Shown: positions 8,086 through 51,147 of the stretch, piece by piece
Layout of the letters: the number at the start of each line of letters is the position of its first letter
Numbering within the stretch: position 1 is the stretch's first letter
Assembly (NCBI GenBank): GCA_036768735.1
Contig: DAIPML010000002.1
Coordinates: 1-51,147, forward strand
DNA: 51,147 nucleotides
From: Clostridiales bacterium
GTDB taxonomy: Bacteria > Bacillota > Clostridia > DSM-8532
Direction of reading: 5' to 3'
Made by a program: the position numbers and the translations under genes
The notes under the pieces: generated by a model
What the model saw: only the letters and a program-made list of their open reading frames with translations
Databases searched by the model: none
What the model was told of the DNA's origin: nothing

Positions 8086-8133
8086 AAGAGATCTACCATT
8101 CATGCGATAATACTACCCAAAACATTAAAAAAT

Positions 8134-8340
8134 TCAACTTTCCCACAGTGTATATAGGTTATCCTTATTGGAGGAGCGTTTTGGTAGGCTAGGGTAAATC
8201 TTTATTAGGAGAGCATTCCGGTTGGCTAAGGTAAATTCTTCTTAAGGGAGCGTTCAAGTAGGGATGCTCCTTTGGTACGCCCCTTAGATTTGGCGTATAC
8301 ATCAATAGCAGGAACCGATTGAAGTGTGATATCACACCTG
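8134..8340 (+). repeat. Family D repeat, copy D1, with three internal ~35-nt degenerate units
   Basis: It starts with caactttcccacagtg and ends with gaagtgtgatatcacacctg. Internal units at 8155-8258 resemble TAGGGTwAtCCTTmTTrGGrGAGCrTTyyGGT. It is the reverse complement of 18091-18292. Confidence 0.85.
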
Positions 8341-8385
8341 AAAAAATAGATATCAGCGTTACAAAACACAATAGAGAGCCGATTG

Positions 8386-12995: not shown

Positions 12996-13026
12996 CCAGA
13001 GAAAGTCGCTTTGTGACTTTCTGGGA
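12996..13026. repeat. Family B core hairpin
   Basis: ccagagaaagtcgctttgtgactttctggg is the palindromic core shared with 1804-1830, 38885-38963, 47012-47036 and 47148-47175. Confidence 0.8.
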
Positions 13027-13145
13027 GATAACCTTATTATTAATTCAACATTAATGCGGGTTTTTTAACCATTGACAGAAAAGATATAATAGAAGTATAG
13101 AGAAAACGGGCAAGCTAATCGGTTTTAAAATAAAAGGAAGTGTCT

Positions 13146-14081: not shown

Positions 14082-14196
14082 CCGGTTTAAAAACAACGGA
14101 AAAAATTGCTTATAACCATTTTTTGCGAAGCAAAATGATGTACTTTAAATTATATGCTTGCGTATCAAGCTATAATTTAAACACACTGTTTCAAAG

Positions 14197-14218
14197 AGGT
14201 TGGGGTCATCTGAGCCTC
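14197..14218 (+). repeat. Short palindromic module gaggttggggtcatctgagcctc
   Basis: Same module as 3607-3629, located 41 nt upstream of the trmFO start. Confidence 0.65.
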
Positions 14219-14258
14219 AATTACAATACAACTTATGTCAGATGGGAGACTTTGCTAT

Positions 14259-17878: not shown

Positions 17879-18090
17879 GAATTGAGAAGTATCCTTCTAA
17901 GCAAGAAAAGGGAATGTACCCTTGAAATCCTTTGTTGTGGATGGTTTCTGCAGATATACTATACTGCGAGCAAAGGGATATCTCTCTTTAATTGCTTTGG
18001 AAAGTATATTTCACTATACATTAGGGTGAACACATTTCATGCATAAAACGCCAATGTAAGGCTTTCACCATGGATGCAATATATTTTAGT

Positions 18091-18292
18091 GCGAGTAGTG
18101 TTTTGAGGTGCTGGTACCGACATGCTGAGGTGTGGTATCGCCTCGCCGTCGGTACCAGCTATGCAGACAAGCGCCCAATACAGGTGCGTACCTAAGGAGC
18201 GTACCAACCGGAACGCTCCCCCAAGAAGGATAACCCTAATCACTGGAACGCACCCCCAAGAAGGGTAGCCCTAAAGTACTGTGGGAAAGTTG
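18091..18292 (-). repeat. Family D repeat, copy D2 (two internal units)
   Basis: The reverse complement starts with caactttcccacagtac, 2 nt after the lipid-kinase stop. It contains the perfect 12-bp inverted repeat gctggtaccgac (18110-18121) / gtcggtaccagc (18148-18159). Confidence 0.85.
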
Positions 18293-18294
18293 GG

Positions 18295-19191
18295 TTAATC
18301 AATTTTATTAACAAACAGTTTTACAGCAGGGTGTATACACTTAACATGTATTGGAAGCAGGGTGCCCGATTCGCCATCTACACATATTTGAACCTGTTTT
18401 TCGGATTGAATTCTGCACTCTTTAGCGCGGATATGGATCATTCGACTGTCGCTGGACAATTCTTTTGACATTATTTTAATGAGTAGATTCAAAAGCTCTT
18501 TTGGCTTTGAATTTTTAAAAAGCAGGATATCAATGAGCCCATCTTCGATGTCGGCTTCCTTGAAAAAATCAGAGAAACCGGCAACGTTTCTTCCGTTAAT
18601 AACAAGAAACAGAATAACATCTTCATTAATGCGACAGTTTTCTGTTTCAACAGACAGGTTAAAAGTTTCAACCTTGGGCAAGGCATCGAAGGCTTTAAGA
18701 TAATAGGCAACAATACCGATGCTTTTTTTTAACTCGTTTCCCGTATGTATGGAGACATTGGAAAACAAACCTCCGCAGAGATTGCCCAGAAAGTAATGAT
18801 GATCATTTATTAAACCTGCATCAATTTCTTTTATTTTGCCTGACATAATTACATTTATCCAGTCGTCTATGTTGTTTGTCATTCCGATGCTGCGGGCAAA
18901 ATCATTGCAGGTACCACCGGGGAAAATACCTATTGGAATTGTTATACCGTTTTTAATATAGAAATTAACCATGTAATTCACGCTACCGTCACCACCTGAA
19001 ACAATAGAAAAGGAATAAGAATCTGAATGGAAAATTTCCTTAAGCGACGATGTACAATCATCATTTTGAAATAATCTGAAAGGAACAAGTAAAACTCCGG
19101 CCTCTTGAAATTTCTCAAACAAATAATCGAGGTTGTTTTTTATGCTGTGGTCCCCAGATTTAGGATTATAAATAAAAAGCCCTTTTTGCAT
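18295..19191 (-). CDS. Diacylglycerol kinase-family lipid kinase (DagK/YegS-like)
   Basis: 298 aa with DAGK catalytic-domain motifs NPKSG, VSGGDGSVN and GTCNDFARSIG. Confidence 0.85.
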   Translation of the reverse strand: MQKGLFIYNPKSGDHSIKNNLDYLFEKFQEAGVLLVPFRLFQNDDCTSSLKEIFHSDSYSFSIVSGGDGSVNYMVNFYIKNGITIPIGIFPGGTCNDFARSIGMTNNIDDWINVIMSGKIKEIDAGLINDHHYFLGNLCGGLFSNVSIHTGNELKKSIGIVAYYLKAFDALPKVETFNLSVETENCRINEDVILFLVINGRNVAGFSDFFKEADIEDGLIDILLFKNSKPKELLNLLIKIMSKELSSDSRMIHIRAKECRIQSEKQVQICVDGESGTLLPIHVKCIHPAVKLFVNKID

Positions 19192-19241
19192 TAGTATCTC
19201 CTAAAAAATAATTTGTTTATTTTAAAGAGGTAACAAGATAG

Positions 19242-19330
19242 CCCCGCCCAAACTCTTTGCATACTTTCGACAATTAGGGTTGAAAAACGTCTGGCGGTGG
19301 TACCGTTTACCAAAATCAGACGGCGAGCTT
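19242..19330 (+). repeat. Family A repeat, diverged copy A5
   Basis: ccccgcccaaactctttgcatactttcgacaattagggttgaaaaacgtctggcggtgg...cagacggcgagc is collinear with 46840-46910 and 50970-51057. Confidence 0.6.
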
Positions 19331-19598
19331 ATCTATAACCTAGATGTATAGTCGAGCAGACCGGTACATGGGCGACTAGCTTCGACATAACAGTGCTTCA
19401 CAATTGTAAAAAAAAACTTGCTCGGTTAAAAGGGTATGTAAATATGTTGCCCAACAAACTCTATATAATAATAGATTATAAAAAAAAATAGTGGTAAAAT
19501 AAAAGTCGAAGTACGTTGAATTAGGAATTTAAAAATATAGATATAAATTGATACATGTTCCATTATCTAAAATATGAAACACAGGATGGTTTTTTCAG

Positions 19599-21479: not shown

Positions 21480-21691
21480 GTAAAGCCATATTTACAATGA
21501 GATTAGAGGATACTAAAATATAACGAGGTTCGGAAGTCCATTTAATTGCAAATCTTAGCTTTCTTTTTTCAACTTAATTTATCTGCTCTGATTTGACCAT
21601 AACAGATACAGCAACAAGAACTGGTATATTATTGTCAGATTTCTTCAGCCACAGGATTTCGACAATTTATTATTCTTTTTTCTTTTTATCC

Positions 21692-21720
21692 TTGTATACA
21701 AAAAACATTTATATTATAAT
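21692..21720 (+). promoter_or_regulatory. Candidate sigmaA promoter (TTGTAT-17-TATAAT) for pta-ackA
   Basis: TTGTAT at 21692-21697 and TATAAT at 21715-21720. Confidence 0.4.
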
Positions 21721-21849
21721 TGTATTGGTTTAGAAAGCTTGCAAATAGCTTATTATAAGGTTTTAATACTAGGTCATAATTACGTTTGATGTTATCAATA
21801 ATGACTATACAAAAACGATCGAAAAGCAGTATCGTTAAAAGTATTATAG

Positions 21850-22875
<1,026 letters not shown>

Positions 22876-24099: not shown

Positions 24100-24145
24100 A
24101 GAAATTCTTCATTGACAAGATATAAAACCACATGATACATTTTAG

Positions 24146-24183
24146 GGTGAAGTTAATGAATAATTATACTTCACCTTATTTAA
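24146..24183 (+). terminator. Probable terminator after ackA
   Basis: 8-bp stem GGTGAAGT/ACTTCACC with a 14-nt loop, followed by TTATTT. A TTGACA box at 24112-24117 means it could instead lie in a lysC leader. Confidence 0.45.
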
Positions 24184-24221
24184 TGCTCAAAATAACAGAA
24201 TTGCTGTGCAATTTCAACACA

Positions 24222-24305
24222 CCCCGGTTGCATGGGCGAGCAGCAAACAAAGTTTGCGACCAGCCCCGGTTGCATGGGCGAGCAGCAAACGAAGTTTGCG
24301 ACCAG
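24222..24305 (+). repeat. 42-bp direct tandem repeat x2 (family C module)
   Basis: ccccggttgcatgggcgagcagcaaacAaagtttgcgaccag occurs at 24222-24263 and again at 24264-24305 with one mismatch. It is related to 51072-51107. An inverted family A core (atacgcgaagaggtgtgg) lies at 24329-24347. Confidence 0.9.
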
Positions 24306-24479
24306 CCATTTCAACGGGGCGGGGGAAAGATACGCGAAGAGGTGTGGAATATGACATATTTTGGGCCAGTAAAGTGAAATCACATATTGAACAAGAAACT
24401 GAACATAAACATATATATATAAGTGAACTGATGCTCGATCCAATTCACGTATATATAGCGGATTTTCGGAGGGAAGTAA

Positions 24480-25841
24480 ATGAAGGTTTGTAAATTTGGA
24501 GGTACATCATTAGCTTCGGCAGATCAGATTAAAAAGGTTTGCGACATAGTTACATCTGATCCTGAACGGAGATTAGTGGTTGTTTCAGCACCGGGGAAAG
24601 AATTTGATGACGATATTAAAGTAACCGACCTTTTGATAAATTTGGCGGAAGCCTATTTAAAAACTCAAAATTGTGATAAAGAGCTTAATCAGGTCGTTTC
24701 GAGATATCAAAGAATCGCTGAAGGGCTTAATTTAGGTGATGGAATTGTCAAAGATATTGAAAACAATTTAAAGACAAGAATTTCACTGGGTTATGACCAT
24801 AAAGAAAAATTTATCGACAGAATGAAAGCTGCTGGTGAGGATAATAGTGCGCGCCTGGTAGCAAAGTATTTAAGGAGTCTGGGTTACAATGCAAAATATA
24901 TTAATCCTAAGGATGCCGGACTATATTTAAGTGATGAATATGGTAATGCTCGTATATTGCCTCAATCCTTTAAAAATCTTTCAAAACTCAGAGATATGGA
25001 TGGAATATTAATTTTCCCTGGGTTTTTTGGTTATTCATTGTCAGGCGAAGTAGTAACATTCTCAAGAGGTGGCTCTGATATTACCGGTTCCATACTTGCA
25101 GCTGCGATTGAGGCTGATATTTACGAAAACTTTACCGACGTCAACTCTGTTTATGCTGCAAATCCGAAATTAATAAAAAATCCCAAGGCTATTTCGGTTT
25201 TAACATACCGTGAAATGAGAGAGCTTGCGTATGCGGGTTTTTCTGTGCTTCATGAAGAAACCCTTGCTCCGGTTTTCAGAAAAGGGATACCTGTAAACAT
25301 CAGAAATACCAACAATCCTGAATCCAAAGGAACAATAATAGCCACAACGAGAAAAATTACCAATGGTCCAGTATCAGGCATCGCCGGTACAGGTGGCTTT
25401 TTAACAATTAATATTCATAAATATTTGATGAACAGAGAAATTGGTTTTGTTAGAAAGGTTCTTTCAATACTTGAAGAAGAATCTGTTTCGTTTGAGCATG
25501 TTCCTTCCGGTATTGATGATATCTCTATTATTCTGCGCAAAAAGCATATTGATGATGACAAGGTTTCCCGTATAATGGAACGTATTGCACATAACCTGGT
25601 TGTTGACAGTATTACAATTGGCTATGACCTTGCCCTTGTTATGGTTGTAGGTGAAGGCATGATGAACAGCATTGGAGTTGCAGGCAGAGCAACCACAGCT
25701 CTCGCAAAGGGTGGAGTAAATATAAGAATGATTAATCAGGGCTCGTCTGAAGTGAGTATAATGTTCGGAATTGATGAAAAGGATCTGGATGCTGCAATAA
25801 TTGCATTATATGATGAGTTTTTTGACGAAAACAATGAATGA
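24480..25841 (+). CDS. lysC: Aspartate kinase (monofunctional, about 450-aa class)
   Basis: N-terminus MKVCKFGGTSLASA, a kinase core and two C-terminal ACT-like regions. GGAGGG lies upstream. Confidence 0.9.
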   Translation: MKVCKFGGTSLASADQIKKVCDIVTSDPERRLVVVSAPGKEFDDDIKVTDLLINLAEAYLKTQNCDKELNQVVSRYQRIAEGLNLGDGIVKDIENNLKTRISLGYDHKEKFIDRMKAAGEDNSARLVAKYLRSLGYNAKYINPKDAGLYLSDEYGNARILPQSFKNLSKLRDMDGILIFPGFFGYSLSGEVVTFSRGGSDITGSILAAAIEADIYENFTDVNSVYAANPKLIKNPKAISVLTYREMRELAYAGFSVLHEETLAPVFRKGIPVNIRNTNNPESKGTIIATTRKITNGPVSGIAGTGGFLTINIHKYLMNREIGFVRKVLSILEEESVSFEHVPSGIDDISIILRKKHIDDDKVSRIMERIAHNLVVDSITIGYDLALVMVVGEGMMNSIGVAGRATTALAKGGVNIRMINQGSSEVSIMFGIDEKDLDAAIIALYDEFFDENNE

Positions 25842-25843
25842 CG

Positions 25844-25932
25844 CAACTTTCCCGTCACGGCTTGCGAGTGATATTTTTTGAGCACTGATAACGACATTCA
25901 GAGGTGTGATATCACGCCGTCAGTAGCTAAAA
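25844..25932 (+). repeat. Family D repeat, short copy D3
   Basis: It starts with caactttcccgtcac 3 nt after the lysC stop and contains cagaggtgtgatatcacgccgtc. Confidence 0.75.
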
Positions 25933-26756: not shown

Positions 26757-26848
26757 TTCACTCCCTCTATATTTCCACAGCTGCCTTTGAACGTTATTAT
26801 TCACACCCTCATATTTCCACAGTTACCTTTGAACAGTTACCTTTAAAT
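26757..26848 (+). repeat. Family E repeat, two tandem 43-nt units plus a partial third
   Basis: ttcacTccctctatatttccacagCTGcctttgaac occupies 26757-26793, and ttcacAccctcatatttccacagTTAcctttgaac occupies 26800-26835. Related modules lie at 37114-37130 and 48923-48955. Confidence 0.85.
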
Positions 26849-27364: not shown

Positions 27365-28384
27365 ATGGTAGTTGTTTTAAAACCTAATGTGCCGGTAGAA
27401 AAAAGAAATGAGCTAATAAGAGAAATTGAATCCATGGGAGTTCGGGTTCAAGTCACAGAAGGTGTTGATGTATCAATTCTTGGACTTGTGGGTGATACCA
27501 CTAACCTGAATAAATACAGAATAGCGTCCAATGAAATTGTCGCTAATATACTTAGAGTTCAAGAGCCCTTTAAAAAGGCAAACAAAATGTTTAAACCTGA
27601 TAATACAATTATAGAAGTGTCGGGAAGAAAAATTGGCGAAGGTTATTTTACAGTAATCACAGGACCGTGCTCAGTAGAAAGTGAGGATCAGATTGAGGGA
27701 ATAGCAAAGGTTGTTAAGGAAAACAAGGCAGCTTTTCTCCGCGGCGGAGCCTATAAACCGAGAACATCTCCTTATGCCTTTCAGGGATTGGGTCTTGAAG
27801 GCCTTGAATATTTAAAACATGCCAAGACACATACGGGATTACCAATTGTTTCTGAGATCATGTCGGTTGATATGGTGCAGCGCTTTGTTGACGATGTGGA
27901 TATTATTCAGATTGGTGCGAGAAATATGCAAAATTTTGTTCTGCTAAAGGAATTAGGGAAAACAAACAAGCCAATTCTTTTAAAGCGTGGATTAGCCGCA
28001 ACAATCGAAGAGTGGCTTATGTCAGCTGAATACATTATGAGTGAAGGTAATGATCAGGTTATTCTTTGCGAAAGAGGTATCAGGACATTTGAGACATACA
28101 CAAGGAACACACTTGATTTAAGCTCCATCCCCGCTATAAAAAAGCTCAGCCATTTACCGGTTATTGTTGACCCAAGCCATGCTACAGGGAAAGCCTGGAT
28201 GGTTGAAAGTATGTCAAAGGCTGCTGTCGTTGCGGGAGGTGACGGCCTCATAATTGAAGTTCACAATAATCCTGCTTGCGCACTGTGTGACGGACAGCAA
28301 TCCATTACACCCGATGAGTATTCTGTGTTGATGAAAAAAATCGAAAAACTGGTTGAGTTTGAAGGTAAAACACTGGTATGCTGA
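27365..28384 (+). CDS. aroF: 3-deoxy-7-phosphoheptulonate (DAHP) synthase, type I-beta with an N-terminal ferredoxin-like regulatory domain
   Basis: 339 aa. The N-terminal ~65-aa domain (MVVVLKPNVPVEKRNELIREIESMG) precedes a KDO8PS-like core (GPCSVES, LRGGAYKPRTSPY, DPSH). Confidence 0.9.
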   Translation: MVVVLKPNVPVEKRNELIREIESMGVRVQVTEGVDVSILGLVGDTTNLNKYRIASNEIVANILRVQEPFKKANKMFKPDNTIIEVSGRKIGEGYFTVITGPCSVESEDQIEGIAKVVKENKAAFLRGGAYKPRTSPYAFQGLGLEGLEYLKHAKTHTGLPIVSEIMSVDMVQRFVDDVDIIQIGARNMQNFVLLKELGKTNKPILLKRGLAATIEEWLMSAEYIMSEGNDQVILCERGIRTFETYTRNTLDLSSIPAIKKLSHLPVIVDPSHATGKAWMVESMSKAAVVAGGDGLIIEVHNNPACALCDGQQSITPDEYSVLMKKIEKLVEFEGKTLVC

Positions 28385-28398
28385 TAATATGATTGTTT

Positions 28399-28568
28399 AC
28401 CGGAAAGTCAAGAATTAATTTTTTCCATAAATTTGCTTGCAGTAAGTTACAGCCTACTGCAACCTGTTGAATTACAATATGGTTATCCGGTCTACTTTTG
28501 AGGTTGATGAATTTATGATATCTTTATTTCACCAGAATAAGCGAAGTGGCTTTCCGGGTAAAACCATA
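28399..28568 (-). repeat. Family B composite repeat (reverse orientation) in the aroF-aroB spacer
   Basis: Its reverse complement aligns over about 170 nt with 46995-47185 (e.g. cggataaccatattgtaattcaacaggttgcagtaggctgtaacttactgc versus ggataaccataatgtgattgcactaggttgcaacaagctgcaacttcctgc). The ends ccggaaagtca / gtggctttccgg form an inverted repeat. Confidence 0.8.
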
Positions 28569-28589
28569 AAATAATATAGGAGGCTAAAA

Positions 28590-29669
28590 ATGCAAAAAAT
28601 AGATGTAAAACTTACTCACAAAAATTATCCGATTTATATTGAAAACGGACTATTTAAAAAAGCAGGTTCCATACTTTCAGAGTTTCTTGCTGAAAAAAAA
28701 GTAATTATAGTCACAGACAGTAATTTATCGTCCTCCTATGGCAATGAGCTCTTACAAAGCTTAAGGGCTGATAAGATTGAATCAGAAATATGCATTATTC
28801 CCGCCGGAGAAAAAAGTAAAAGCATAGATGTGCTTACAAAGCTTTATAATTCATTTGCTGGTTTTGGTATAACAAGGAATGATTTTGTGATTGCTCTGGG
28901 TGGGGGTGTTACAGGTGATTTAACAGGATTCGCAGCATCCACCTGGCTTCGGGGCACAGGATTTATTCAAATACCCACGTCACTTCTTTCAATGGTTGAT
29001 TCCAGTATTGGAGGAAAAGTTGCTATAAACCTGCAAATCGGAAAAAATTTGGTCGGTAGCTTTTATCATCCTGAAGTTGTACTTATTGATCCCGTACTGC
29101 TTGAAACAATACCAAACAGATATTTTGCAGATGGAATGGCTGAGGTTATAAAATATGGTTGTATTGATGGAACAGAGCTTTTTGACAGTTTAAAAAATCT
29201 AAAGAACCGCCAAAGTACAATGAAAATCATCGATAGCATCATATTCCGATGTTGTGATATAAAGCGCAGGATAGTTGAGTTGGACGAACGAGAAAGTAAT
29301 ATTAGAATGGTGCTGAATTTTGGGCACACAATTGGACATGCAATAGAAAAGTATTTTGATTATAAAAAATATACTCATGGTGAGGCAGTTTCACTGGGTA
29401 TGGTATTTATAGCCGAATTATCCCATAAGCTTGGATATTGCAACAAAGATATTCCCGACAGGATTACGATTCTTCTTAAGCAGTCAGGTCTCCCGGTTGT
29501 TATTCCGGAAATGGAGCCGAAAGCTGTTATTGATACGGTTTTTGTTGATAAAAAAGCAAGAACAAATGATATAAATCTGATACTTATAAAGGATATTGGA
29601 AATGTAATAATTGAAAAATTCCCAAAGGATAAAATCGGAGGTCATATCTATGAAATGCTTAACAATTAA
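28590..29669 (+). CDS. aroB: 3-dehydroquinate synthase
   Basis: 359 aa with GGGVTGDLTGFAA, SMVDSSIGGKVAIN and NFGHTIGHAIE. Confidence 0.93.
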   Translation: MQKIDVKLTHKNYPIYIENGLFKKAGSILSEFLAEKKVIIVTDSNLSSSYGNELLQSLRADKIESEICIIPAGEKSKSIDVLTKLYNSFAGFGITRNDFVIALGGGVTGDLTGFAASTWLRGTGFIQIPTSLLSMVDSSIGGKVAINLQIGKNLVGSFYHPEVVLIDPVLLETIPNRYFADGMAEVIKYGCIDGTELFDSLKNLKNRQSTMKIIDSIIFRCCDIKRRIVELDERESNIRMVLNFGHTIGHAIEKYFDYKKYTHGEAVSLGMVFIAELSHKLGYCNKDIPDRITILLKQSGLPVVIPEMEPKAVIDTVFVDKKARTNDINLILIKDIGNVIIEKFPKDKIGGHIYEMLNN

Positions 29670-33404: not shown

Positions 33405-34397
33405 ATGAAGTATGGTTTAATAGGTGAAAAGCTCAGTCATAGTCTATCTCCTGACATTCATAGGATTTTCTTCGAACTGACAGGAAAAAAAGGTGATTAC
33501 GGGCTTTTTGAGCTTTCAATAGAGGAACTTCAGCCTTTTCTTTTGAATGCTTCTGATAAAGGCTTTAAAGGCTTGAATGTGACGATTCCATATAAAAAAA
33601 AGGTTATTTCGTATATCAATGAATTATCCAAAGAAGCAATGAAAATTGGTGCGGTGAATACAATTGTGCCTGGGAACATGTTGAAAGGCTATAATACCGA
33701 TTATTATGGAATAGATTATACTCTAAGAAAATATCATGAAAGCTTTTATTGGGACAGAGCTCTTGTATTGGGTAGTGGCGGGGCAGCAAATGCAGTTATC
33801 ACTTATCTTGAAGACAATAAAGACAATGAATTCAATGAAGAAGGTATAGACAATGCAGACAAAAAAGACAACATAGATTATAAAAAAAATAAAGACAATA
33901 AAGAAAATAAAGACAATGCAAACAAAAATGAAGACTATGAAAGAAATGAAAGCAACAAATACAATGAAACCAATGGAATCAATGAAATTAATAAAAGAAG
34001 CAGTGTTGTAAGCAAAATCTATCTGGCAAGCAGAGATAAAATAGCTGCAAAAAATAAATTTCCACATGCTAATACGGTTTCATATGATGAAATAGCTGAT
34101 TATTCACCATTTGACATAATAGTAAACACTACACCGGTGGGAATGTTTCCATCGGTAGGAGCTTCTCCATTAACAAAAGAGCAAATTAATGGCTCCGGCT
34201 TTTTGTTTGACTTAATTTATAACCCTGCTAAAACAAGGCTGATGGAGCTTTCAGATGAATTAGGCATACCTAATGTAAATGGGCTGTATATGCTGGTAGC
34301 CCAAGCTGTAAAAGCACAGGAAATATGGAATGGAGAAGAGTATGGGCAGGATTTGGTAGATGCTGTATACTTGAGGTTCTTGGGGGAACGAGCTTAA
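33405..34397 (+). CDS. aroE: Shikimate dehydrogenase (canonical catalytic motifs) carrying a ~65-aa low-complexity insertion
   Basis: SHSLSP, NVTIPYKK, GYNTDYYG, GSGGAANA and NTTPVGM are present. AAAGGAG lies upstream of ATG 33405. An N/K/D/E-rich insert is encoded at about 33811-34005. Confidence 0.9.
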   Translation: MKYGLIGEKLSHSLSPDIHRIFFELTGKKGDYGLFELSIEELQPFLLNASDKGFKGLNVTIPYKKKVISYINELSKEAMKIGAVNTIVPGNMLKGYNTDYYGIDYTLRKYHESFYWDRALVLGSGGAANAVITYLEDNKDNEFNEEGIDNADKKDNIDYKKNKDNKENKDNANKNEDYERNESNKYNETNGINEINKRSSVVSKIYLASRDKIAAKNKFPHANTVSYDEIADYSPFDIIVNTTPVGMFPSVGASPLTKEQINGSGFLFDLIYNPAKTRLMELSDELGIPNVNGLYMLVAQAVKAQEIWNGEEYGQDLVDAVYLRFLGERA

Positions 34398-35905: not shown

Positions 35906-37096
35906 GTGAAAAGATTTCTTGCCTGCATAATAATTTCAATGATTTTTTTTTTAACAGTAATATATGCGGATGACATAAATGAGGATGCTCCGGTTTCATC
36001 TATTTTTGATGATATTGCAGTTGAAGTGTATAATGATGATGCTCCTAATATTAATGCGCGTTCAGCCATTGTTATTGATTTTGAATCCGGGCGGGTTCTA
36101 TACGAGAAATATGCATATCAAAAGCGTCCGATGGCAAGCACTACGAAAATTATGACTGCAATTGTAGCACTTGAAAATGGTAATTTGGATGATATTGTAA
36201 CTGTTAGCAAAAACGCTGCATCCATATGGGGTTCTACCATAAATTTAACTGTCGGCGAACAGCTTACCTTAAGAGAATTAATGTATGGTCTTTTAATGCG
36301 CTCTGGAAATGATGCGGCCATAGCAATTGCTGAACACATCGGTGGAAGTGTGGATTCATTTTTAGAAATGATGAATAAAAAAGCGAAAGAATTAGGAGCA
36401 CTAAATAGCAATTTTACAAGCCCTCATGGTCTTGATGGGACAGGTCATTACTCTACAGCTTATGATATGGCGATATTGACCAGACACGCTCTTAACATTC
36501 CAATATTCAATGATATTGTAAAAACAAAAACAATTCAGGTTGGCAAACGATTTATGAGCAATACAAATGAAATGTTAACAGGTTATGAGGGCGCTGACGG
36601 TGTAAAAACAGGCTATACAGGAAGAGCCGGGAGATGCCTTGTTACCTCAGCTACAAGGGATGGTAGAAGATTTATTTCAGTTGCTCTATTTTGCGACAGC
36701 AGAAATCTTAGGGCACTAAGCAGTAAAAAAATACTGGACTATGCTTTTGAGAATTATTTTCCTTATAATATTATAGAAAATGGTAATTTTGGTGAGATTC
36801 CTGTTTACAAAGGTTATGAAGAGTCAGTGCCCATCATAATAAATAAGTCAGTAACAATGCCTTTAACAGAATTTGAATCTGAGAATCTTTATACAAAAGT
36901 GTCTCTTCCTGATATTATAACAGCTCCGGTAGAAAGAGGTTCAGTATTAGGTACAATGTCCGTATACCTAAACGATGAGATACTGTGCGAATCAACTCTA
37001 ATCGCCGGAAAAACAATAAAACAGAAAAAAATGCTTGAGCATATGCTAGATGTTATTCAAGTTTGGCTACAGCTCATGAAGGAACCTAGAACATAG
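35906..37096 (+). CDS. D-alanyl-D-alanine carboxypeptidase (PBP5/S11 family, DacB/DacF-like)
   Basis: SxxK (ASTTK), SGN (RSGND) and KTG (VKTGYT) motifs are present. GTG start follows AGGGGGA. A signal peptide is present. Confidence 0.88.
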   Translation: MKRFLACIIISMIFFLTVIYADDINEDAPVSSIFDDIAVEVYNDDAPNINARSAIVIDFESGRVLYEKYAYQKRPMASTTKIMTAIVALENGNLDDIVTVSKNAASIWGSTINLTVGEQLTLRELMYGLLMRSGNDAAIAIAEHIGGSVDSFLEMMNKKAKELGALNSNFTSPHGLDGTGHYSTAYDMAILTRHALNIPIFNDIVKTKTIQVGKRFMSNTNEMLTGYEGADGVKTGYTGRAGRCLVTSATRDGRRFISVALFCDSRNLRALSSKKILDYAFENYFPYNIIENGNFGEIPVYKGYEESVPIIINKSVTMPLTEFESENLYTKVSLPDIITAPVERGSVLGTMSVYLNDEILCESTLIAGKTIKQKKMLEHMLDVIQVWLQLMKEPRT

Positions 37097-37113
37097 AGAA
37101 ATGATGGTTATTG

Positions 37114-37452
37114 TTCACACCCTCTATATTCTGAGATATAGCGAGGCTCAGATGTCCCCACCTCTTCGCGTATTTTCAACCATTATGGCTATTGAAGGAC
37201 GTTCTTTTGCTTTGCAAAAAACGGATCAAGCAATTTCTTCCGTTATTTTAACCGTGCAATCACAATATGGTTATCTCTCAGAAAGTCACATAGTGATTAT
37301 TTGATGCAATTTAAGATATTTTAAATTTCATCTGCTTTCAAAAGAAGGCTGGAAAATTATATTGAGATTACACTTGGTTGTAGCTTGACACGACTTCCTG
37401 CGGATTGACCAGCAAGAAAAATACGTTTCACGATTTTAAGGTAGAAATCATA
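37114..37452 (+). repeat. Mosaic array: family E module, family A copy A3, and family B composite copy
   Basis: ttcacaccctctatatt lies at 37114-37130. gaggctcagatgtccccacctcttcgcgtattttcaacc begins at 37143. The span 37266-37452 is collinear with 46995-47185. Confidence 0.85.
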
Positions 37453-37623
37453 ATAATAAATTAAAATGAATTATTTAAAATTTTAACTTGCAATATTATA
37501 TGAAAAGTATTAATATAAAAAAAAGAATTATCAGCCACTCATATATGCACATTCTTTTTTTCAATAGTTGCATGAAAAATGAGAATAATAGGCTGTATAA
37601 GATTACTGGGGGAAATAATTAAC

Positions 37624-38880
37624 ATGTATGAAGGATTTAACAGAGAGAAGTTAAAACAGCGCAAACAAGATATCGAAAATAAATATAATAACTATAAACT
37701 GCAAAACTTAAAGCTTGACATGTCCAGGGGTAAGCCATCTTGGGATCAGCTTAATCTGTCTAACGGTATATATGAAAATGTTGATGATTTTATATCCGAT
37801 GGAGGGGTTGATAGTAGAAACTATGGTATTCTGGATGGGTTATTGGAAATGAGAAAGCTTTTTGCCCAGATTATTGGTGTTTCACCTGATGAAGTTATCG
37901 CCGGTGACAGCTCCAGCCTGAATATGATGTATGATGCCATTTCCAGGGCTTTTAATCATGGGATAATGGGTAATGAACCATGGTGTAAGCTTGATAAAGT
38001 GAAATTTCTATGCCCAAGTCCAGGGTATGACAGGCATTTTGCTATATGTGAGTTATTTAAAATTGAAATGATAACTATACCCATGGACAATAATGGACCT
38101 GATATGGATATGGTTGAAGCTATAGTGGGTGAGGATGATTCTGTTAAAGGTATATGGTGTAACCCTATGTATAGCAATCCAACCGGTATTATATATTCAG
38201 ATGAGGTTATAGAGCGCTTAGCGGTTATGAAAACAAAAGCAAAGGATTTTCGTATATTCTGGGATAATGCATATGCACTGCATCATTTATATGAGGAAAA
38301 TACTCAATTAAATATATTGAATGAGTGCAAAAAAGCCGGCAATGAGGATAGGGTTTTTATGTTTTATTCAACCGCAAAAATTTCATTTGCCGGAGCAGGC
38401 GTTGCTGCGATAGCAGCTAGTAAAGGAAACATTGAGAATATAAAAAAGCTTATTTCCATACAGACAATAGGACCAAATAAAATAAATCAGCTGCTTCATG
38501 TGCGTTTTTTCAAGGATTTGGAAGGTGTCAAAGCCCATATGAAAAAGCATGCAGAAATTTTAAGACCGAAGTTTGAAGCCGTATTATATATTCTAGATAA
38601 AAACCTTGGAAATCTTAATATAGCAAAATGGACGAACCCAAAGGGTGGATATTTCATAAGCTTTGATACGCCAAAGGGATGTGCAAAAGAAGTGGTGGCT
38701 AAAGCTAAGGAGGCAGGGGTTTCATTTACGAATGCCGGTGCAACTTACCCGTATGGGATTGATCCGGATGATAAAAACATTCGTATTGCTCCGTCATACC
38801 CACAAATTGAAGAGCTTAAAAAGGCAATGGAGATATTCTGTATATGTGTTGAATTAGTAGTGTTGCAAAAATTATTATGA
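37624..38880 (+). CDS. PLP-dependent aminotransferase, class I/II fold (putative aspartate aminotransferase-like family)
   Basis: About 418 aa with LDMSRGKP near the N-terminus and a candidate PLP-lysine region YSTAKISFAGAG. The precise specificity cannot be determined from the sequence. Confidence 0.7.
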   Translation: MYEGFNREKLKQRKQDIENKYNNYKLQNLKLDMSRGKPSWDQLNLSNGIYENVDDFISDGGVDSRNYGILDGLLEMRKLFAQIIGVSPDEVIAGDSSSLNMMYDAISRAFNHGIMGNEPWCKLDKVKFLCPSPGYDRHFAICELFKIEMITIPMDNNGPDMDMVEAIVGEDDSVKGIWCNPMYSNPTGIIYSDEVIERLAVMKTKAKDFRIFWDNAYALHHLYEENTQLNILNECKKAGNEDRVFMFYSTAKISFAGAGVAAIAASKGNIENIKKLISIQTIGPNKINQLLHVRFFKDLEGVKAHMKKHAEILRPKFEAVLYILDKNLGNLNIAKWTNPKGGYFISFDTPKGCAKEVVAKAKEAGVSFTNAGATYPYGIDPDDKNIRIAPSYPQIEELKKAMEIFCICVELVVLQKLL

Positions 38881-38884
38881 TTAC

Positions 38885-38963
38885 CCTGAAAGCCACGAAG
38901 TGACTTCTAATGATTATCGAATCGTCTTTAATAACGACTAAAGTTACTTCATGACTTTCTGGG
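38885..38963. repeat. Family B core hairpins (two half-elements)
   Basis: cctgaaagccacgaagtgacttct lies at 38885-38908 and agttacttcatgactttctggg at 38942-38963. Confidence 0.7.
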
Positions 38964-39135
38964 AGATAATCAGATAACAACAATAAAAAACTCACATCGT
39001 TAAAAATAGTAAATTATATCTGGATTTTTAGAGAGAAAGAATATATAATAGATATGTCATGCAACAGATTTGAACATTATGTAAGAACTTCATGTCGTCT
39101 TAACAATGACAACATAAACTTGGAGGAAAAAAATC

Positions 39136-39240
39136 TTGCAAAAAAATTCCTATGGTAATTCTTTAGATACAAGGTATGCAAGCAAAGAAATGCAACTTCT
39201 TTTTTCATCTGACACAAAATTCAAAACTTAGCGAAAGCTA
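39136..39240 (+). pseudogene. 5' remnant of an adenylosuccinate lyase (purB, ADSL-type) gene
   Basis: GGAGGA lies upstream of the TTG start. The translation LQKNSYGNSLDTRYASKEMQLLFSSDTKFKT*RKL matches the conserved ASL N-terminus (...PL.tRYASkEM..lFS...KF.tWRkLW...), with TAG replacing the Trp codon. Similarity is lost after RKL. Confidence 0.6.
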
Positions 39241-39391
39241 TTAATCTTAACGTGTAGTAATATAACATTTAATTCACTTCGTTGAATAAGACTTAAGTAC
39301 TAATGATAAAATTTTTAAACAGAACTCTTGAATATTATTATTCAACCTGATATGATGTAAGAACATAATTACAACATTATGTTTTAAATAT

Positions 39392-40159
39392 GTGATGCAA
39401 ATGGGGGTAAGAGACGTGGGCGCAATAAATAAGTACAGTACTGTGCCATTATATTGTCAACTTAGAAACATAATTCTTAAAAAAATAGAATCTGGTTTTT
39501 TTGCAGAGGATTCCAAGATTCCTTCAGAGCAGGATTTGTGTGAAAAATATGGTATCAGCCGTCCTACAGTCAGACAAGCAATTAATGAGCTGACAAATAA
39601 TGGGCAGTTATATAAGCTAAAGGGTAAGGGAACCTTTGTTACAAAAAGAAAATCCAATATAAACATTAAGGATTATAATGGCTTTACAGATTCAATTCTT
39701 GATAGCCTTGAACCTGAAAAAAAGAATATAACATCTATTACCACTGTTACTACAGATGAAATAGGAAAACTGAAGGATATATTTAATATAAAAGCAGAAA
39801 AACATGAATTCGCTTCCATTACATATGTAAATACTCGAAATGAAGAGGCTTTTTCAATCAATACATCATATATCCCACTAAATCTTTTTCCGGATTTAAT
39901 TGATGACATTAATAATAAAAAGCCATCATTTGAAATACTTCGAGGGAAATATCCTTTGGTGCCATGTAGCTCAAAAAGCTCTCTTGAGGTTATTTATACA
40001 GATCAATCAGATGCCGGACTGTTGCAGCTGCAACCCGGACAAGCCCTTATAGAGGTAAATAATGTACTTTTCTCAAAAAGCGGTCAGCCTGTTGAATATA
40101 TTGTCTCGAAATACAGAGCAGATAAGTGCAAGCTGATGTTTGAAAATTATAAAAAATAG
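39392..40159 (+). CDS. GntR-family transcriptional regulator, HutC/UTRA subfamily
   Basis: Winged HTH PSEQDLCEKYGISRPTVRQAINELTNNGQLYKLKGKGTFV, followed by a UTRA-like effector domain. The start is uncertain (GTG 39392, ATG 39395/39401 or GTG 39416). Confidence 0.85.
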   Translation: MMQMGVRDVGAINKYSTVPLYCQLRNIILKKIESGFFAEDSKIPSEQDLCEKYGISRPTVRQAINELTNNGQLYKLKGKGTFVTKRKSNINIKDYNGFTDSILDSLEPEKKNITSITTVTTDEIGKLKDIFNIKAEKHEFASITYVNTRNEEAFSINTSYIPLNLFPDLIDDINNKKPSFEILRGKYPLVPCSSKSSLEVIYTDQSDAGLLQLQPGQALIEVNNVLFSKSGQPVEYIVSKYRADKCKLMFENYKK

Positions 40160-40160
40160 T

Positions 40161-40303
40161 AATGGTTAAGATGCTGAAATGATAGGAAAATAAAAACACT
40201 AAAAAATAATAAAGGCAAAATTTTGAAATGATAGTAGTTTAAAATGCCGAAATGATAGCAGATTAATATATTGAAATGATATTAATGGTTAAAATACTGG
40301 AAA
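40161..40303 (+). repeat. Degenerate ~24-nt direct repeats sharing GAAATGATA
   Basis: GAAATGATA occurs at 40176, 40225, 40249 and 40273. aatggttaaRatRctg occurs at 40161 and 40284. Confidence 0.7.
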
Positions 40304-40335
40304 ATTTGTATAACCAGAAATTTAAGAAAAGCATA

Positions 40336-40366
40336 GAGAAAAGCGTTGAGAAAAGCGTTGAGAAAA
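40336..40366 (+). repeat. 12-nt tandem repeat gagaaaagcgtt (about 2.6 copies)
   Basis: Read directly from the sequence: gagaaaagcgtt gagaaaagcgtt gagaaaa. Confidence 0.85.
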
Positions 40367-40376
40367 CTTGGAATAT

Positions 40377-40432
40377 ATACATACATACATACATACATAC
40401 ATACATACATACATACATACATACATACATAC
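40377..40432 (+). repeat. Tetranucleotide microsatellite (ATAC)14
   Basis: 14 perfect ATAC units were counted from the sequence. The run lies between the convergent 3' ends of the GntR gene and the coat-protein gene. Confidence 0.95.
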
Positions 40433-40511
40433 AAATAGAAAAAGCCTGGAGAAAACTCCGGGCTTTAAATGTGTGGCAAATGAGTGCTTCAATTCAAAAA
40501 TGCTTTATTTT

Positions 40512-41059: not shown

Positions 41060-41634
41060 TTAATTGCCTCCTTGTTATTTAAATATGCCGACATAAAGAT
41101 AGCGTCTGCAAACTAATTTAAAATATACGTAAAACAAATTTAAAGCTTCGTTAAAATAAAGAAATGAATAAGAACCCCGCTTTTTGCAAAGCTAAAACTA
41201 TACCGTATTTTCAATGCTTTCAAATTAAATTTTTTCATTGCTTCTCAGTAACTTACTGATGCAAAACATTAATAAACAAGAATATTCATGTTTTGCATCT
41301 ATGAGTTCCTATATTGGGGTGTAGGCTAAGCCTACTTTAGATTTTAAAGATCAGAAGTTTAGTTTTAGGTACTCATTAGCCAATGTGTGTTTGTATTCAA
41401 TAATGCTTTTGCATACCTGTACATTCGAAATTATATACGTATTCAATTAAAGCCCACAGGTAAAGCAAAAATTTTTTTTTATATACTGTTTCAAATGCAA
41501 AAAATGTGTTAAAATAATAACAAGCGAATAGTAATCTAAGCTGTGGGCAAAGAAGCTGCAGTAAGGATTTCTTATTTTACATACCTGATAACATGGAGGA
41601 ATCTTTGTGGAGGGGAAGGTAATTACCACTGCCC

Positions 41635-44232: not shown

Positions 44233-44436
44233 AGACACGCAATTGATTAGTAATTACTTCTCATTTACCTAACTTTATTGTAGTATTATGAACACTTGCC
44301 TGCATAGCAGGCTATTGACAACTTTAGGATATTACGCCTCAACATGTCGATTCCATAAGAGTTGTCTTTAAATAGTAACTCATTAGAAAATCACTTCGTG
44401 TATTTATGTAAGATAATCATAGCATTTCTTCGAAAT

Positions 44437-44593
44437 CATGATATAATAACCTCACCCGTTACCGAAATCAAAGATTTCGAACGGGTACCCGAGAACATTG
44501 TATCATGAATTATGCAGCCGATGCTCGTCTGCTCTCGGTTACACCGAGTGATAAGCTGACGCTTTCCATGAATTCATGGTATAATAACCTCAC
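44437..44593 (+). promoter_or_regulatory. Duplicated 19-mer carrying an extended -10 box, flanking a structured 119-nt spacer upstream of queA
   Basis: catgAtataataacctcac lies at 44437-44455 and catgGtataataacctcac at 44575-44593; each contains TGnTATAAT. Between them is a 13-bp interrupted hairpin at 44455-44485. Confidence 0.45.
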
Positions 44594-45671: not shown

Positions 45672-45840
45672 CGCTATAAGAAAAGTTACACACTATAAGA
45701 AAAGTCACACACTCATTTTTTTATGTGTTTTTCTGAAAAAGCGTTAAAAAATGATGTTAGTCAGAGCTTAGCCATTTTTTAAAAAAGAAGCATGTAAAAA
45801 TGCATGTAATTATTATAAAATCATGGAAAGGATGATTTTA

Positions 45841-46680
45841 ATGCTTAATAAAAAAATTAAAATCTGGGATGATGTAAAAACAGACAAGGCTTACAATGAC
45901 GATTTTGATCCTATTCTTGAAACATACATCTTGTCAGGTAATAAAAAAAGAGCTGCTGTTTTGATTTGTCCCGGCGGAGGATACGCTTATACCTCAGAGA
46001 GGGAAGCGGAACCCATTGCAATGCAGTTCAATGCAAATGGATACCATGCATTTGTTTTGAATTACAGTGTTGCGCCAAGGCGGCATCCCCAACCAATTTT
46101 GGATTGCTCTCGTGCTATGTGCCTGATTCGCAGTAACGCCGAAGAATGGAATATCGATAGCTTTAAAATAGCCGTTTGTGGTTTTTCTGCAGGTGCTCAC
46201 CTTGCAGCAAGTCTTGGTGTCCATTGGAACAAACCTTTACTTGATGTTAGTGGAATACATATCGGAATGAATAAACCGGATGCTTTAATATTGGCTTATC
46301 CTGTGATTTCAATGAAAAATTATTGCCATATTGGTTCAAGAGAAAACTTATTGGGAAAAAACCCGGAGATAAATCTTGTAGAGGAAATGTCTCTTGAAAC
46401 ACAGGTTTCAAGAAACACACCACCGTCTTTTATATGGCATACGGTTGAAGATGTAGCGGTTCCAGTTGAAAACAGCCTTATGTTTGCTAGCGCGTTGCGA
46501 AAAGAAAAAATCCCTTTCGAACTACATGTTTACACTAAAGGACCGCATGGTTTATCACTTGCCACTGAAGAAACGGATGTTGCAAAAAACGGCTCATTTC
46601 CTCATATAGCCGGATGGGTAAAGCTTAGCATTGAATGGCTGGAGGAGATTTTTACACCACAATCTTTTTTTAGTCTATAA
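45841..46680 (+). CDS. Alpha/beta hydrolase (esterase, BD-FAE/arylesterase-like)
   Basis: Oxyanion region CPGGGYAY, nucleophile elbow GFSAGAHLA and a C-terminal His region GPHGLSL. Confidence 0.8.
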   Translation: MLNKKIKIWDDVKTDKAYNDDFDPILETYILSGNKKRAAVLICPGGGYAYTSEREAEPIAMQFNANGYHAFVLNYSVAPRRHPQPILDCSRAMCLIRSNAEEWNIDSFKIAVCGFSAGAHLAASLGVHWNKPLLDVSGIHIGMNKPDALILAYPVISMKNYCHIGSRENLLGKNPEINLVEEMSLETQVSRNTPPSFIWHTVEDVAVPVENSLMFASALRKEKIPFELHVYTKGPHGLSLATEETDVAKNGSFPHIAGWVKLSIEWLEEIFTPQSFFSL

Positions 46681-46814
46681 CTCAACTTTCCCATTTTAAC
46701 TTGCGACTAGTGTTTTGAGGCGCTGGTGCCGACATGCTGAGGTGGGATATCACATCGCCGTCGGTAGCCTGCTGTGCAGGCAAGCGCCCTAAAACACTGT
46801 GAGAAAGTTGAGTT
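46681..46814 (+). repeat. Family D repeat, compact copy D4 with terminal inverted repeats
   Basis: It begins ctcaactttccca 1 nt after the esterase stop and ends ctgtgagaaagttgag. The two arms (agtgttttgaggcgctggtgccgac / gtcggtagcc...gcgccctaaaacact) form a long imperfect hairpin. Confidence 0.88.
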
Positions 46815-46820
46815 AATAGT

Positions 46821-46910
46821 GAGGCAACAAGATGTACCTCATATCTTCGCGTATTTTCAACAATTAGAGTTAAAAAACGTCTGGTTGCGGGTATGTGGTG
46901 GAATCAAAAT
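46821..46910 (+). repeat. Family A repeat, diverged copy A4
   Basis: gaggcaacaagatgtacctcatatcttcgcgtattttcaacaattagagttaaaaaacgtctggttgcgg... Confidence 0.7.
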
Positions 46911-46994
46911 TTAATAATAATTAAACTCCGAGAGTGATTTCTAATTAAACTTTAATGAATGGCTAACGCTTTTTTCATAGTAACAGTCTATAAT

Positions 46995-47185
46995 TATATT
47001 ATGGTTACCATCCAGAAAGTCACAAAGTGGCTTTCTAATGAAATCTAAGATATCTTTAATTTAATAGCCTTCGAATGAAGGCTGGATAACCATAATGTGA
47101 TTGCACTAGGTTGCAACAAGCTGCAACTTCCTGCTGGTAAATCTGCAGGAAAAAGTCGTTTCACGACTTTCTGGGAAGTAATCAT
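46995..47185 (+). repeat. Family B composite repeat (about 190 nt), reference copy
   Basis: Left hairpin ccagaaagtcacaaagtggctttct, central ggataaccataatgtgattgcactaggttgcaac, right hairpin ggaaaaagtcgtttcacgactttctggg. It is collinear with 37266-37452 and with the reverse complement of 28399-28568. Confidence 0.88.
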
Positions 47186-47238
47186 GTTGTAGTTAAATCT
47201 AGCAAATTATGTGATTGCTCTGAAGGAGGATGAAATAT

Positions 47239-47788: not shown

Positions 47789-48955
<1,167 letters not shown>

Positions 48956-49086
48956 TTGATATATATATGTACAATAACGGAAACTACGCTTCATTTGCAA
49001 GAGCTGCATTCCGATAATGCATCCTAATATTGCACATATATGTTTTCTGAGTTACCTCTAAACAGTAGCGTTAAAAAATCATTCAT

Positions 49087-49152
49087 CCCCCACCGACACT
49101 TTCACTGTCATGAATAAGGTAGTTTTGAGGTGGGGGTCTTCAGATTTATCTG
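49087..49152. repeat. Family G-like hairpin
   Basis: cccccacc (49087-49094) pairs with ggtggggg (49129-49136). ggtgggggtcttcagatttatctg resembles 118-140. Confidence 0.55.
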
Positions 49153-49162
49153 AAATAAATAG

Positions 49163-50237: not shown

Positions 50238-50953
50238 TTTTTGATATTTTAACACTGTTTCCGGAAAGCATTGACAATTTTTTATCTGAAAGCATAATCG
50301 GAAGAGCTCGTGATAAAGACATAATAAAAATAAAAGCCCACAATATAAGGGATTTTTCCGCAGACAAGCATAAAAAGGTTGATGATTATCCCTACGGTGG
50401 CGGTACAGGTATGGTCATGACACCTCAGCCAATTTATGATGCATGGCAGCATGTTACTAAGGATTTACCTTATAAGCCTAAAACCATATACATGAGCCCT
50501 CAGGGAAAGGTGTTAACCCAAGATATAGCCAATGAGCTTAAGAAGGAAAAGCATATAGTAATACTTTGTGGTCATTATGAAGGTATTGACGAACGGATTA
50601 TTGAAGAAATAATAGATATAGAAATTTCCATAGGTGATTATGTATTAACCGGTGGTGAACTGCCGGCTATGGTTCTTGTTGATTGTATAAGCCGCCTTGT
50701 TGAGGGGGTTTTACCATCGGAAGAGGCTTTTTCCCAGGAATCTCATTATGATGGGTTGCTGGAGTATCCCCAATACACTCGTCCACCTGAATTTATGTCG
50801 AGATGCGTGCCTGACATCCTGCTGTCTGGACATCATGCCAACATAGAAAAATGGCGTCAAGATAAAAAAGTAGAAAGAACCCGTAAAAAAAGACCGGATT
50901 TATATAGGAAGTATATGCGTAAGCTGAAAAAAAATAATCAACCTGATAAATAA
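50234..50953 (+). CDS. trmD: tRNA (guanine37-N1)-methyltransferase
   Basis: 239 aa with ILTLFPE, YPYGGGTGMVM, CGHYEGIDERI and SIGDYVLTGGELPAMV. The start overlaps the rimM stop. Confidence 0.95.
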   Translation: MIFDILTLFPESIDNFLSESIIGRARDKDIIKIKAHNIRDFSADKHKKVDDYPYGGGTGMVMTPQPIYDAWQHVTKDLPYKPKTIYMSPQGKVLTQDIANELKKEKHIVILCGHYEGIDERIIEEIIDIEISIGDYVLTGGELPAMVLVDCISRLVEGVLPSEEAFSQESHYDGLLEYPQYTRPPEFMSRCVPDILLSGHHANIEKWRQDKKVERTRKKRPDLYRKYMRKLKKNNQPDK

Positions 50954-50954
50954 C

Positions 50955-51133
50955 GAGGCTAAGATGTCCCCCACCTCTTCGCATATTTTCAACCAGAATG
51001 GTTGAAAAATGCCTGGTGGCGGGTACATATTTCACACAACAGGCGGCGAGTCAAAATCTCCCGCATAGGATGCATAGGCGAGCAGCAGGCTCTGCCTGCG
51101 ACCAGCCTCGTTGAAATGGTGTGTTGAAAATAT
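50955..51133 (+). repeat. Family A copy A2 followed by a family C module (runs towards the window end)
   Basis: gaggctaagatgtcccccacctcttcgcatattttcaaccagaatggttgaaaaatgcctggtggcg starts 2 nt after the trmD stop. gcataggcgagcagcaggctctgcctgcgaccagcc (about 51072-51107) parallels the 42-bp unit at 24222. Confidence 0.85.
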
Positions 51134-51147
51134 AGCTTGCTACGCAA

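Follow-up and report, generated by a model that had tools for sequence, protein, structure and literature searches.

Correia elements of Neisseria and the RUP elements of pneumococcus are MITEs with TA target sites that are present in hundreds of copies. In pneumococcus and S. suis, BOX elements have the modular structure boxA-boxB(n)-boxC (Croucher et al. 2011, PMC3049150), and in pneumococcus BOX, RUP and SPRITE form mixed clusters in one spacer and have internal modules that are shared between families (PMC3049150). An initial annotation of a 51,147-nt stretch of clostridial DNA (the window), made from the sequence alone, had described two spacers as built from repeat modules reminiscent of BIME/REP, Correia or BOX/RUP systems. 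Our analyses bear out that likeness to dense, modular, dispersed repeats, in that terminal modules surrounding variable numbers of tandem units are the BOX pattern. Both spacers are indeed accumulations of short, hairpin-forming, non-coding mobile repeats from several unrelated families, whose sequences are undescribed but whose type (MITE, BOX, BIME-like) is well known.

The window has a G+C content of ~37% and its genes are nearly all housekeeping genes that are co-oriented. Positions 36352-40432 have 99.9% identity to a contig in an ENA bin labelled "uncultured Anaerocolumna sp.", while the NCBI MAG proteins that are at least 90% identical to those of the window are labelled Ruminiclostridium sp. 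and the closest AroF homologues carry the labels Clostridiaceae, Ruminiclostridium or Thermoclostridium. Judged from these matches, the host is an uncultured Clostridia bacterium of fermentation reactors, for which the genus label is uncertain because the ENA, NCBI and AroF-homologue labels differ. For the identification of repeats, the window was compared with itself and with unlinked sequence, ~290 kb in total, that comes from this organism or one very close to it. When public metagenome contigs were scanned with the core of the A module, 42 loci (364 kb) were identified that collapse to about 30 distinct places, and alignments with flanks, in which the element ends are sharp, were prepared for 44 A copies, 8 full B copies and 13 D copies. 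Loci and contigs other than the window are cited below by L numbers. Numbers of copies per genome are extrapolated from ~70 kb of contiguous sequence and from loci that were chosen for carrying A. When one genome per species was scanned in the same way, most matches were due to chance, because the species representative (L022) is a fragmented bin, but A-like ends were recognised in another species. One relative, L084, is syntenic with the window at a nucleotide identity of about 92-95%.

The families of the window recur in 27 or more (about 30 distinct) loci that are unlinked and belong to this or a very similar organism. None of the 42 A-core loci is syntenic with the window and no coding similarity links them. 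All of the window-to-locus matches fall in window spacers and cover modules A, B, C, D and X, and further families of the window, at 347-465, 41247-41340, 44416-44453 and 48931-49159, match unlinked loci as well. Annotation with a module library identified 51 A, 31 B and 18 D matches within 342 kb. In addition, A-like ends form a ~65-nt inverted pair in a related species (L010, L078), and the A family is therefore not confined to one species. The restriction of the repeats to spacers is also apparent from the numbers of bases involved, as 29.7% of the intergenic bases of the window match another place in the window or the ~290 kb of unlinked sequence, versus 0.47% of the coding bases. A module was present in 13-14 of the 20 window spacers of at least 190 nt, in agreement with the original impression that most of the longer spacers carry one. 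In ~19 kb flanking the window, which was unselected for repeats, repeat-covered bases made up 4.3%.

In the first focal spacer (37097-37578), 74% of the sequence is repeated at least twice elsewhere and in the second (46681-47229) 80% is covered by sequence repeated at least twice. Self-BLAST, find_repeats and Tandem Repeats Finder recovered every family that the initial annotation had named, in the place where it had put it, although its maps of the two spacers had to be re-drawn (Table 1). For 37114-37452 it had proposed the order E, A, B, and all three are present, but E is only a 17-25-nt motif (37114-37130) and the segment 37201-37251, previously included in B, is an X2 end that belongs with A, so that an A-X2 element (37138-37251) is followed by B (37262-37455). 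For 46681-47185 the proposed D, A and B do occur in that order, but the A-type element is truncated (46816-46921, directly after D at 46678-46815) and is separated from B (46995-47189) by 73 nt of unique sequence (46922-46994). The order of A then B that had been noted in both spacers is real, yet A and B do not form a fixed unit. The focal B copies are only 73% alike and the copy at 46995-47189 has 87.5% identity to unlinked copies, on which basis the two were probably inserted independently. This arrangement of the spacers recurs in at least 8 independent assemblies.

Table 1. Repeat elements and modules located in the window, in order of position
Feature	Position	Strand	Details
Solo B_R half-element	1775-1863	+	Self-comparison
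Remnant of A left end	3595-3641	-	Short spacer before comFB
A element without canonical left terminus	6838-6926	+	Self-comparison, unlinked loci, A alignment
D element, long form	8121-8369	-	Self-BLAST, tandem-repeat search
Solo B end hairpin	13000-13045	-	Self-comparison, module annotation
Degenerate A-X2-type element	14082-14234	-	Fills 153-nt spacer
D element, long form	18083-18306	+	Two 33-35-nt G units at 18207-18274
A-type element, sub-family of the 46816 copy, then C-like units	19227-19384	+	Self-comparison, A alignment
A(truncated)-C-C-X composite	24189-24352 (A 24298-24352; two C units 24222-24305)	-	L095 has three C units; L093 is without the element
Partial D element	25838-25927	+	Self-comparison, module annotation
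Tandem, about two copies, of a 42-nt unit starting with the E motif	26757-26848	+	Tandem Repeats Finder 26757-26839, period 42, 1.9 copies
Full B element	28386-28598	-	Fills aroF-aroB spacer; begins directly after aroF TGA (28382-28385)
E motif TTCACACCCTCTATATT	37114-37130	+	Also at 26694, 26757, 26799, 48939
A-X2 element, internally deleted	37138-37251	+	A left end 37138-37188; X2 right end 37201-37251 ending ...CTTCCGTTATTT+TAA
B element	37262-37455	+	~195 nt; ~40-nt inverted ends with hairpin
Solo B end hairpin, degenerate	38936-38978	+	Self-comparison, module annotation
Partial D element	44263-44349	-	Self-comparison, D alignment
D element, short form	46678-46815	+	17-nt terminal inverted repeats TAACTCAACTTTCCCAC / GTGGGAAAGTTGAGTTA; first TAA is the upstream stop codon
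Truncated A-type element	46816-46921 (A match 46816-46893)	+	Sub-family with left end ATAGTGAGGCAAC; adjoins D directly
B element	46995-47189	+	B_L 46995-47100; B_R 47101-47189
Full A-C-X composite, cut by window end	50947-51147 (A 50950-51056; C 51064-51105)	+	Starts at trmD TAA stop; strain presence/absence

Annotation of all loci with a small module library revealed that A is not a whole element but forms the left end of a composite similar to BOX. These composites, referred to here as A...X, begin with A and end with X or X2; between the two lie zero to three G units (33-35 nt) and/or zero to three C units (42 nt), which can have either orientation, giving a size range of 115-560 nt. Strings of the type A-(G)n-(C)n-X were found in the window and in L039, L067, L064 and L057. 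Consistent with this structure, the two places at which A and C had initially been seen in combination, 24206-24350 and 50955-51133, both correspond to composite elements. Alignment of the 44 A copies showed a conserved left end, TAACGAGGC..., with a sharp left boundary at (T)ATAACGAGGC, and a core that is an imperfect palindrome of ~57 nt (CCCCCACCTCTTCGCATATTTTCAACCA / TGGTTGAAAAATGCCTGGTGGCGGG), the rightward continuation of which is copy-specific. X and X2 share the terminus ...GCAATTTCTTCCGTTATTT, and X begins with GCCTCGTT, the complement of the left AACGAGGC. No inverted repeat was found at the extreme ends of A...X, only this sub-terminal pair and the palindromic core. Across the families, the element ends read TAACGAGGC...CCGTTATTT, ATAATATGGTTATC...GCAATCATAATAT and TAACTCAACTTTCCCAC. 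Many copies of A...X are internally deleted, such that a truncated A is fused to the last ~25 nt of X, and the A-X2 element of the first focal spacer has the same architecture as elements in L055 and L070. Nearly all copies have TAAC to their left, and six of the eight complete ones have TAA to their right. The C units differ from one another by paired changes that keep the hairpin (AAAC/GTTT versus AGGC/GCCT). For the A hairpin, the asymmetry of G-U versus A-C pairs was used to compare RNA-level with DNA-level pairing, and wobble counts were similar on both strands. At 3600-3932, comFB has a possible 110-aa reading that begins within the A remnant; most public calls are of 91 aa, which places the start near 3657 and leaves the remnant intergenic. 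In the spacer at 21480-21873, 166 nt are missing from L090, and these include a reversed TATAACGAGG end. The spacer had been counted among those free of modules but thus contains a degenerate element of the A type.

The B and D families are ordinary MITE-like elements. The 8 full B copies that were aligned are ~195 nt in length with ~40-nt inverted ends, each of which has an 11-bp hairpin, CAGAAAGTCAC-AAA-GTGACTTTCTG. B is made up of two self-closed halves, B_L and B_R, each with its own terminal stem, and the halves are also found alone, while the end hairpins occur as singlets and inverted doublets. The 13 aligned D copies are ~135-250 nt, with 17-nt inverted ends and, in the long form, optional G units, which are common to A...X and D. 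As single strands, the elements had fold z-scores of -4.8 to -7.7, far below those of shuffled controls: the D element of the second focal spacer folds as one long hairpin (z = -7.65), and the B element of that spacer gave z-scores of -6.97 and -4.78. E is the weakest of the modules, being a motif of 17-25 nt for which 4 matches were found when up to 3 mismatches were allowed (0.2 expected), mostly just after stop codons; its tandem arrangement at 26757-26848, noted initially, was recovered by Tandem Repeats Finder.

Several other repeats were observed in the window. A further hairpin-rich family is present at 78-150 and at 347-465, the latter just upstream of tRNA-Gln (468-541). It has the form GTTCAGC-WAAA-GCTGAAC, then CTTCGGTGGGGG...CCCCCACCGAAG, copies of it at 79-100% identity are in L043, L049, L065, L070 and L071, and its GGTGGGGG(A/T)CT motif is common to the A left end and 49118-49140. 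Two more small families, at 41247-41310 and 44412-44593 (a 28-nt-arm palindrome; a direct pair containing GAAATCATGATATAATAACCTC), have copies in L052, L064, L065, L079 and L084. Within a spacer at 40373-40433 there is an (ATAC)15 microsatellite with length differences between strains of -16 to +24 nt, and at 45674-45713 a 19-nt tandem repeat, CTATAAGAAAAGTCACACA, of 2.1 copies, one unit of which was gained or lost between strains. In-frame tandem repeats that are unrelated to the intergenic families are located inside a gene for a DHHW-family protein (11157-11361, period 15 nt) and in the N-terminal part of a shikimate-dehydrogenase-like protein (33811-33946, period 9 nt).

Comparisons of strains and close relatives showed that the elements are gained or lost as precise units. 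L086 has the A-C-X composite with which the window ends, and L087 is without it, having exactly 205 nt less with otherwise identical flanks: the empty site reads GATAAA-TAAC-AGC and the filled site GATAAA-TAAC-GAGGC...CCGTTATTT-TAAC-AGC, where TAA is the trmD stop codon. This is the only empty site with perfectly identical flanks. In L084, the first focal spacer is without A-X2 and has a palindromic mini-B there, with an extra reversed B about 100 nt downstream, and the second is without D and the A-type element, having the empty site AGTTAATA^ACTCCGAG and only an inverted B_L; an A2 element is also found in L084 in the spacer separating queA from the next gene, a place at which the window is without one. 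The D element of the second focal spacer is mostly deleted in L006 and is of the long form in L002 (+95 nt of G units), a solo B_R is found in L054 but not in L041, and the number of C units is 2 or 3 between strains. The aroF-aroB spacer is 205 nt and B-filled in the window, versus 61-67 nt or overlapping genes in three relatives, in 10-15 kb of which no module was found; the short spacers of these relatives were not alignable with that of the window, and no duplication was readable at this empty site for B. In L062, an A is nested inside a B. The absence of elements in L093 and L090 is accompanied by replaced sequence and could result from recombination rather than transposition. Among six strains that are 99.6% identical over ~21 kb, most modules are stable and the changes are in the second focal spacer, and therefore activity is either low or past.

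Elements of the A type and D often lie on TAA or TA, in two cases on the stop codon of the upstream gene. The D element (46678-46680) and the A-C-X composite (50951-50953) begin exactly on a TAA stop, and elements targeting TAA would leave the stop codon intact. The L087/L086 junction is ambiguous by four bases, with TAAC on both sides of the 205-nt insert, and it fits a 3-4-nt TAA(C) duplication, insertion beside TAAC without duplication, or insertion into TA^TAA. The flank statistics of A...X (TAAC on the left, TAA on the right) fit all three readings alike, and the TA...TA that flanks D is possibly part of its inverted ends instead. The one clean site and the flank statistics together suggest a TA/TAA target. 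In spacers between co-directional genes, the ratios of sense to antisense orientation relative to transcription were 8:10 for A, 12:7 for B and 6:4 for D. Two other types of end were considered during reading of the alignments and rejected: the element ends are unlike the core-site consensus of integron attC sites and their neighbours are housekeeping operons, and the GGGG run is on the inner, not the outer, side of the end, unlike in Tn3-type ends.

The elements are dispersed, restricted to intergenic DNA, in both orientations and variable in tandem-unit number. The explanation that we consider probable is that the spacers are landing zones, in which unrelated small non-coding, non-autonomous mobile families have inserted beside, and sometimes into, each other. 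Under this explanation, one or more transposases encoded elsewhere in the genome would move the elements in trans, insertion would prefer AT-rich TA(A) sites, and copies would accumulate in intergenic DNA because insertions are tolerated there. Slippage, internal deletion and recombination between inverted ends could then produce the mosaic, and any effects on neighbouring genes, such as those of hairpins in 3' untranslated regions, would be secondary. The presence of both orientations, the absence of terminator-like sites and of any clear excess of promoter-like sites, and the lack of a match to an RNA family led us to favour non-autonomous elements that are mobilised in trans at the DNA level. 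A search of 342 kb, in which no multi-copy sequence exceeded 600 nt except for composite repeats, revealed no parent element with a transposase and matching ends, and no match to the elements was found in collections of plasmids, phages and viral contigs; movement in trans is for that reason something we can only infer.

It is less likely, in our estimation, that the hairpin units, especially the B end hairpin, spread in the REP/BIME manner as single-stranded DNA through a domesticated Y1 (HUH) RAYT or an IS200/IS605-type transposase, with A...X inserting beside a fixed TAAC without duplication. The modules are indeed made of several hairpins, the singlets and inverted doublets of the B end hairpin are suggestive of such a system, and A...X has no terminal inverted repeats and TAAC before nearly every copy, with a clean junction that would fit an insertion on the 3' side of TAAC without duplication. 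Transposition as single strands should yield an orientation bias. However, A showed none (8 sense, 10 antisense), the inverted ends of B and D are long and conventional, the units greatly exceed REPs in length with no GTAG-type head visible in the B alignment, and no Y1 transposase gene was seen in the known fragments of the genome. Slightly more doubtful again is the more specific proposal that A...X and the hairpin-ended B together form a system of the BIME/REPIN kind, with a Y1 (HUH) single-strand transposase as the agent of spread; if true, Clostridia would have a dense system of the REP-RAYT type, for which filled and empty sites occur naturally.

We regard it as improbable that the modules are functional cis-acting elements under selection (terminators, mRNA stabilisers, attenuators or protein-binding sites) and the mosaics therefore regulatory regions. 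Their predicted hairpins are stable, placement right after stop codons is frequent (46678, 50951, 28385), the paired changes in the C units keep the hairpin, and BOX elements are known to affect neighbour genes (PMC3049150). Conversely, the modules occur in both orientations relative to transcription and adjoin unrelated housekeeping genes, and the orthologous spacers of relatives with the same genes are without them. Neither focal spacer has terminator-like sites, and promoter-like sites in both were at or modestly above shuffled counts. In an Rfam scan, only tRNA-Gln reached the gathering score, and nothing was found over the modules even when E values of up to 1 were admitted, in accord with the initial failure to recognise any named family. 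Finally, a local segmental duplication or assembly artefact confined to the two focal spacers is scarcely credible even though both spacers have A then B and the metagenome contig that makes up the window terminates within a repeat, since copies in about 30 unlinked places mean that there was no single segmental duplication, since the same arrangement in at least 8 independent assemblies means that there was no artefact, and since the focal spacers resemble distant copies more than each other. The families are thus dispersed, as the initial annotation had held.

The repeats of the window break metagenome assemblies, as shown by the window ending inside one of them and by several contigs that change partner exactly at an A end. 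Contigs of different samples lose collinearity exactly at an A-type end in L086/L087 (about 17470), in L092 versus the window (about 24640) and in L077/L080, and in L002 (20869-21191) the A at 46.9 kb is joined to window ~349-433; these breaks represent either real rearrangement at repeats or mis-joins by the assembler. The last ~19 nt of the window (51129-51147) differ from the L086 element and resemble the 14.1 kb copy, and the contig end seems to be a repeat-induced assembly ambiguity. The repeats also give rise to spurious small "genes" in public annotations and to fragmentary taxonomic bins. At 37152-37304 (A-X2-B) and 24132-24493 (C units), public calls or ORFs of 50-95 aa lie wholly on modules, and these small proteins are probably spurious. 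The current understanding of bacterial interspersed repeats is unchanged by these families. Rather, they provide a compact example of several small mobile families that share internal units and land on TAA stop codons, and their clean filled and empty alleles among co-occurring strains are usable for finding the mobilising enzyme and for testing effects on neighbour genes.

A literature search found no description of repeats in Anaerocolumna or Ruminiclostridium, nor of these sequences. Going by the published family descriptions alone, bcr1-bcr18 of the Bacillus cereus group (cited in PMC6542083 and PMC3184786) resemble the window repeats in being many coexisting intergenic families of 100-400 nt in a Firmicute, some MITE-like with AT-rich targets and often adjacent, but they are other families in another host lineage. 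MITEPgRS of Porphyromonas gingivalis (PMC4596501) is similarly a MITE with an internal tandem array of variable copy number (a minisatellite); it differs in phylum and sequence and forms one family, with no stacking of several. With Correia elements and RUP, the window elements have in common a non-coding length of 100-200 nt, inverted ends, TA-containing sites that are often at gene ends, and both orientations, although their sequences are unrelated, their TA/TAA target is deduced from one clean site and flank statistics, and no IS630-like parent was found.

Likenesses to BIME/REP (PU) clusters and REPINs lie in the building of intergenic mosaics from a few hairpin units and linkers, in the singlets and inverted doublets and in the high copy number. 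The window repeats differ from these in being units of 100-250 nt with long inverted ends, not palindromes of 20-40 nt, in having no GTAG head and no known RAYT and in showing a clean 205-nt insertion/absence event. For elements derived from IS200/IS605 (PATE type), the TAAC left of nearly all A...X copies and the clean junction are compatible, but a 3-nt TAA duplication fits equally and A...X has no strong orientation bias (A 8:10). Similar to MITEs, the window elements are short (115-560 nt) and non-coding, with many dispersed copies and presence/absence polymorphism at orthologous sites; inverted repeats form the ends of B (~40 nt) and D (17 nt), whereas A...X has only its sub-terminal pair. 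The resemblance of A...X to BOX extends to conserved end modules that pair with each other around variable tandem internal units, to changes in unit number between strains (here 2 versus 3 C units) and to being hairpin-forming, intergenic, a source of spurious small ORFs and clustered with other families. A...X differs from BOX in having no known sequence relationship to it, a Clostridia and not a Streptococcus host, internal units of two kinds, 35 and 42 nt long, that lie in either orientation, and an extra tail of ~45 nt past the pairing end. Yet in both systems different end modules share internal units, as the G units are shared here between A...X and D.
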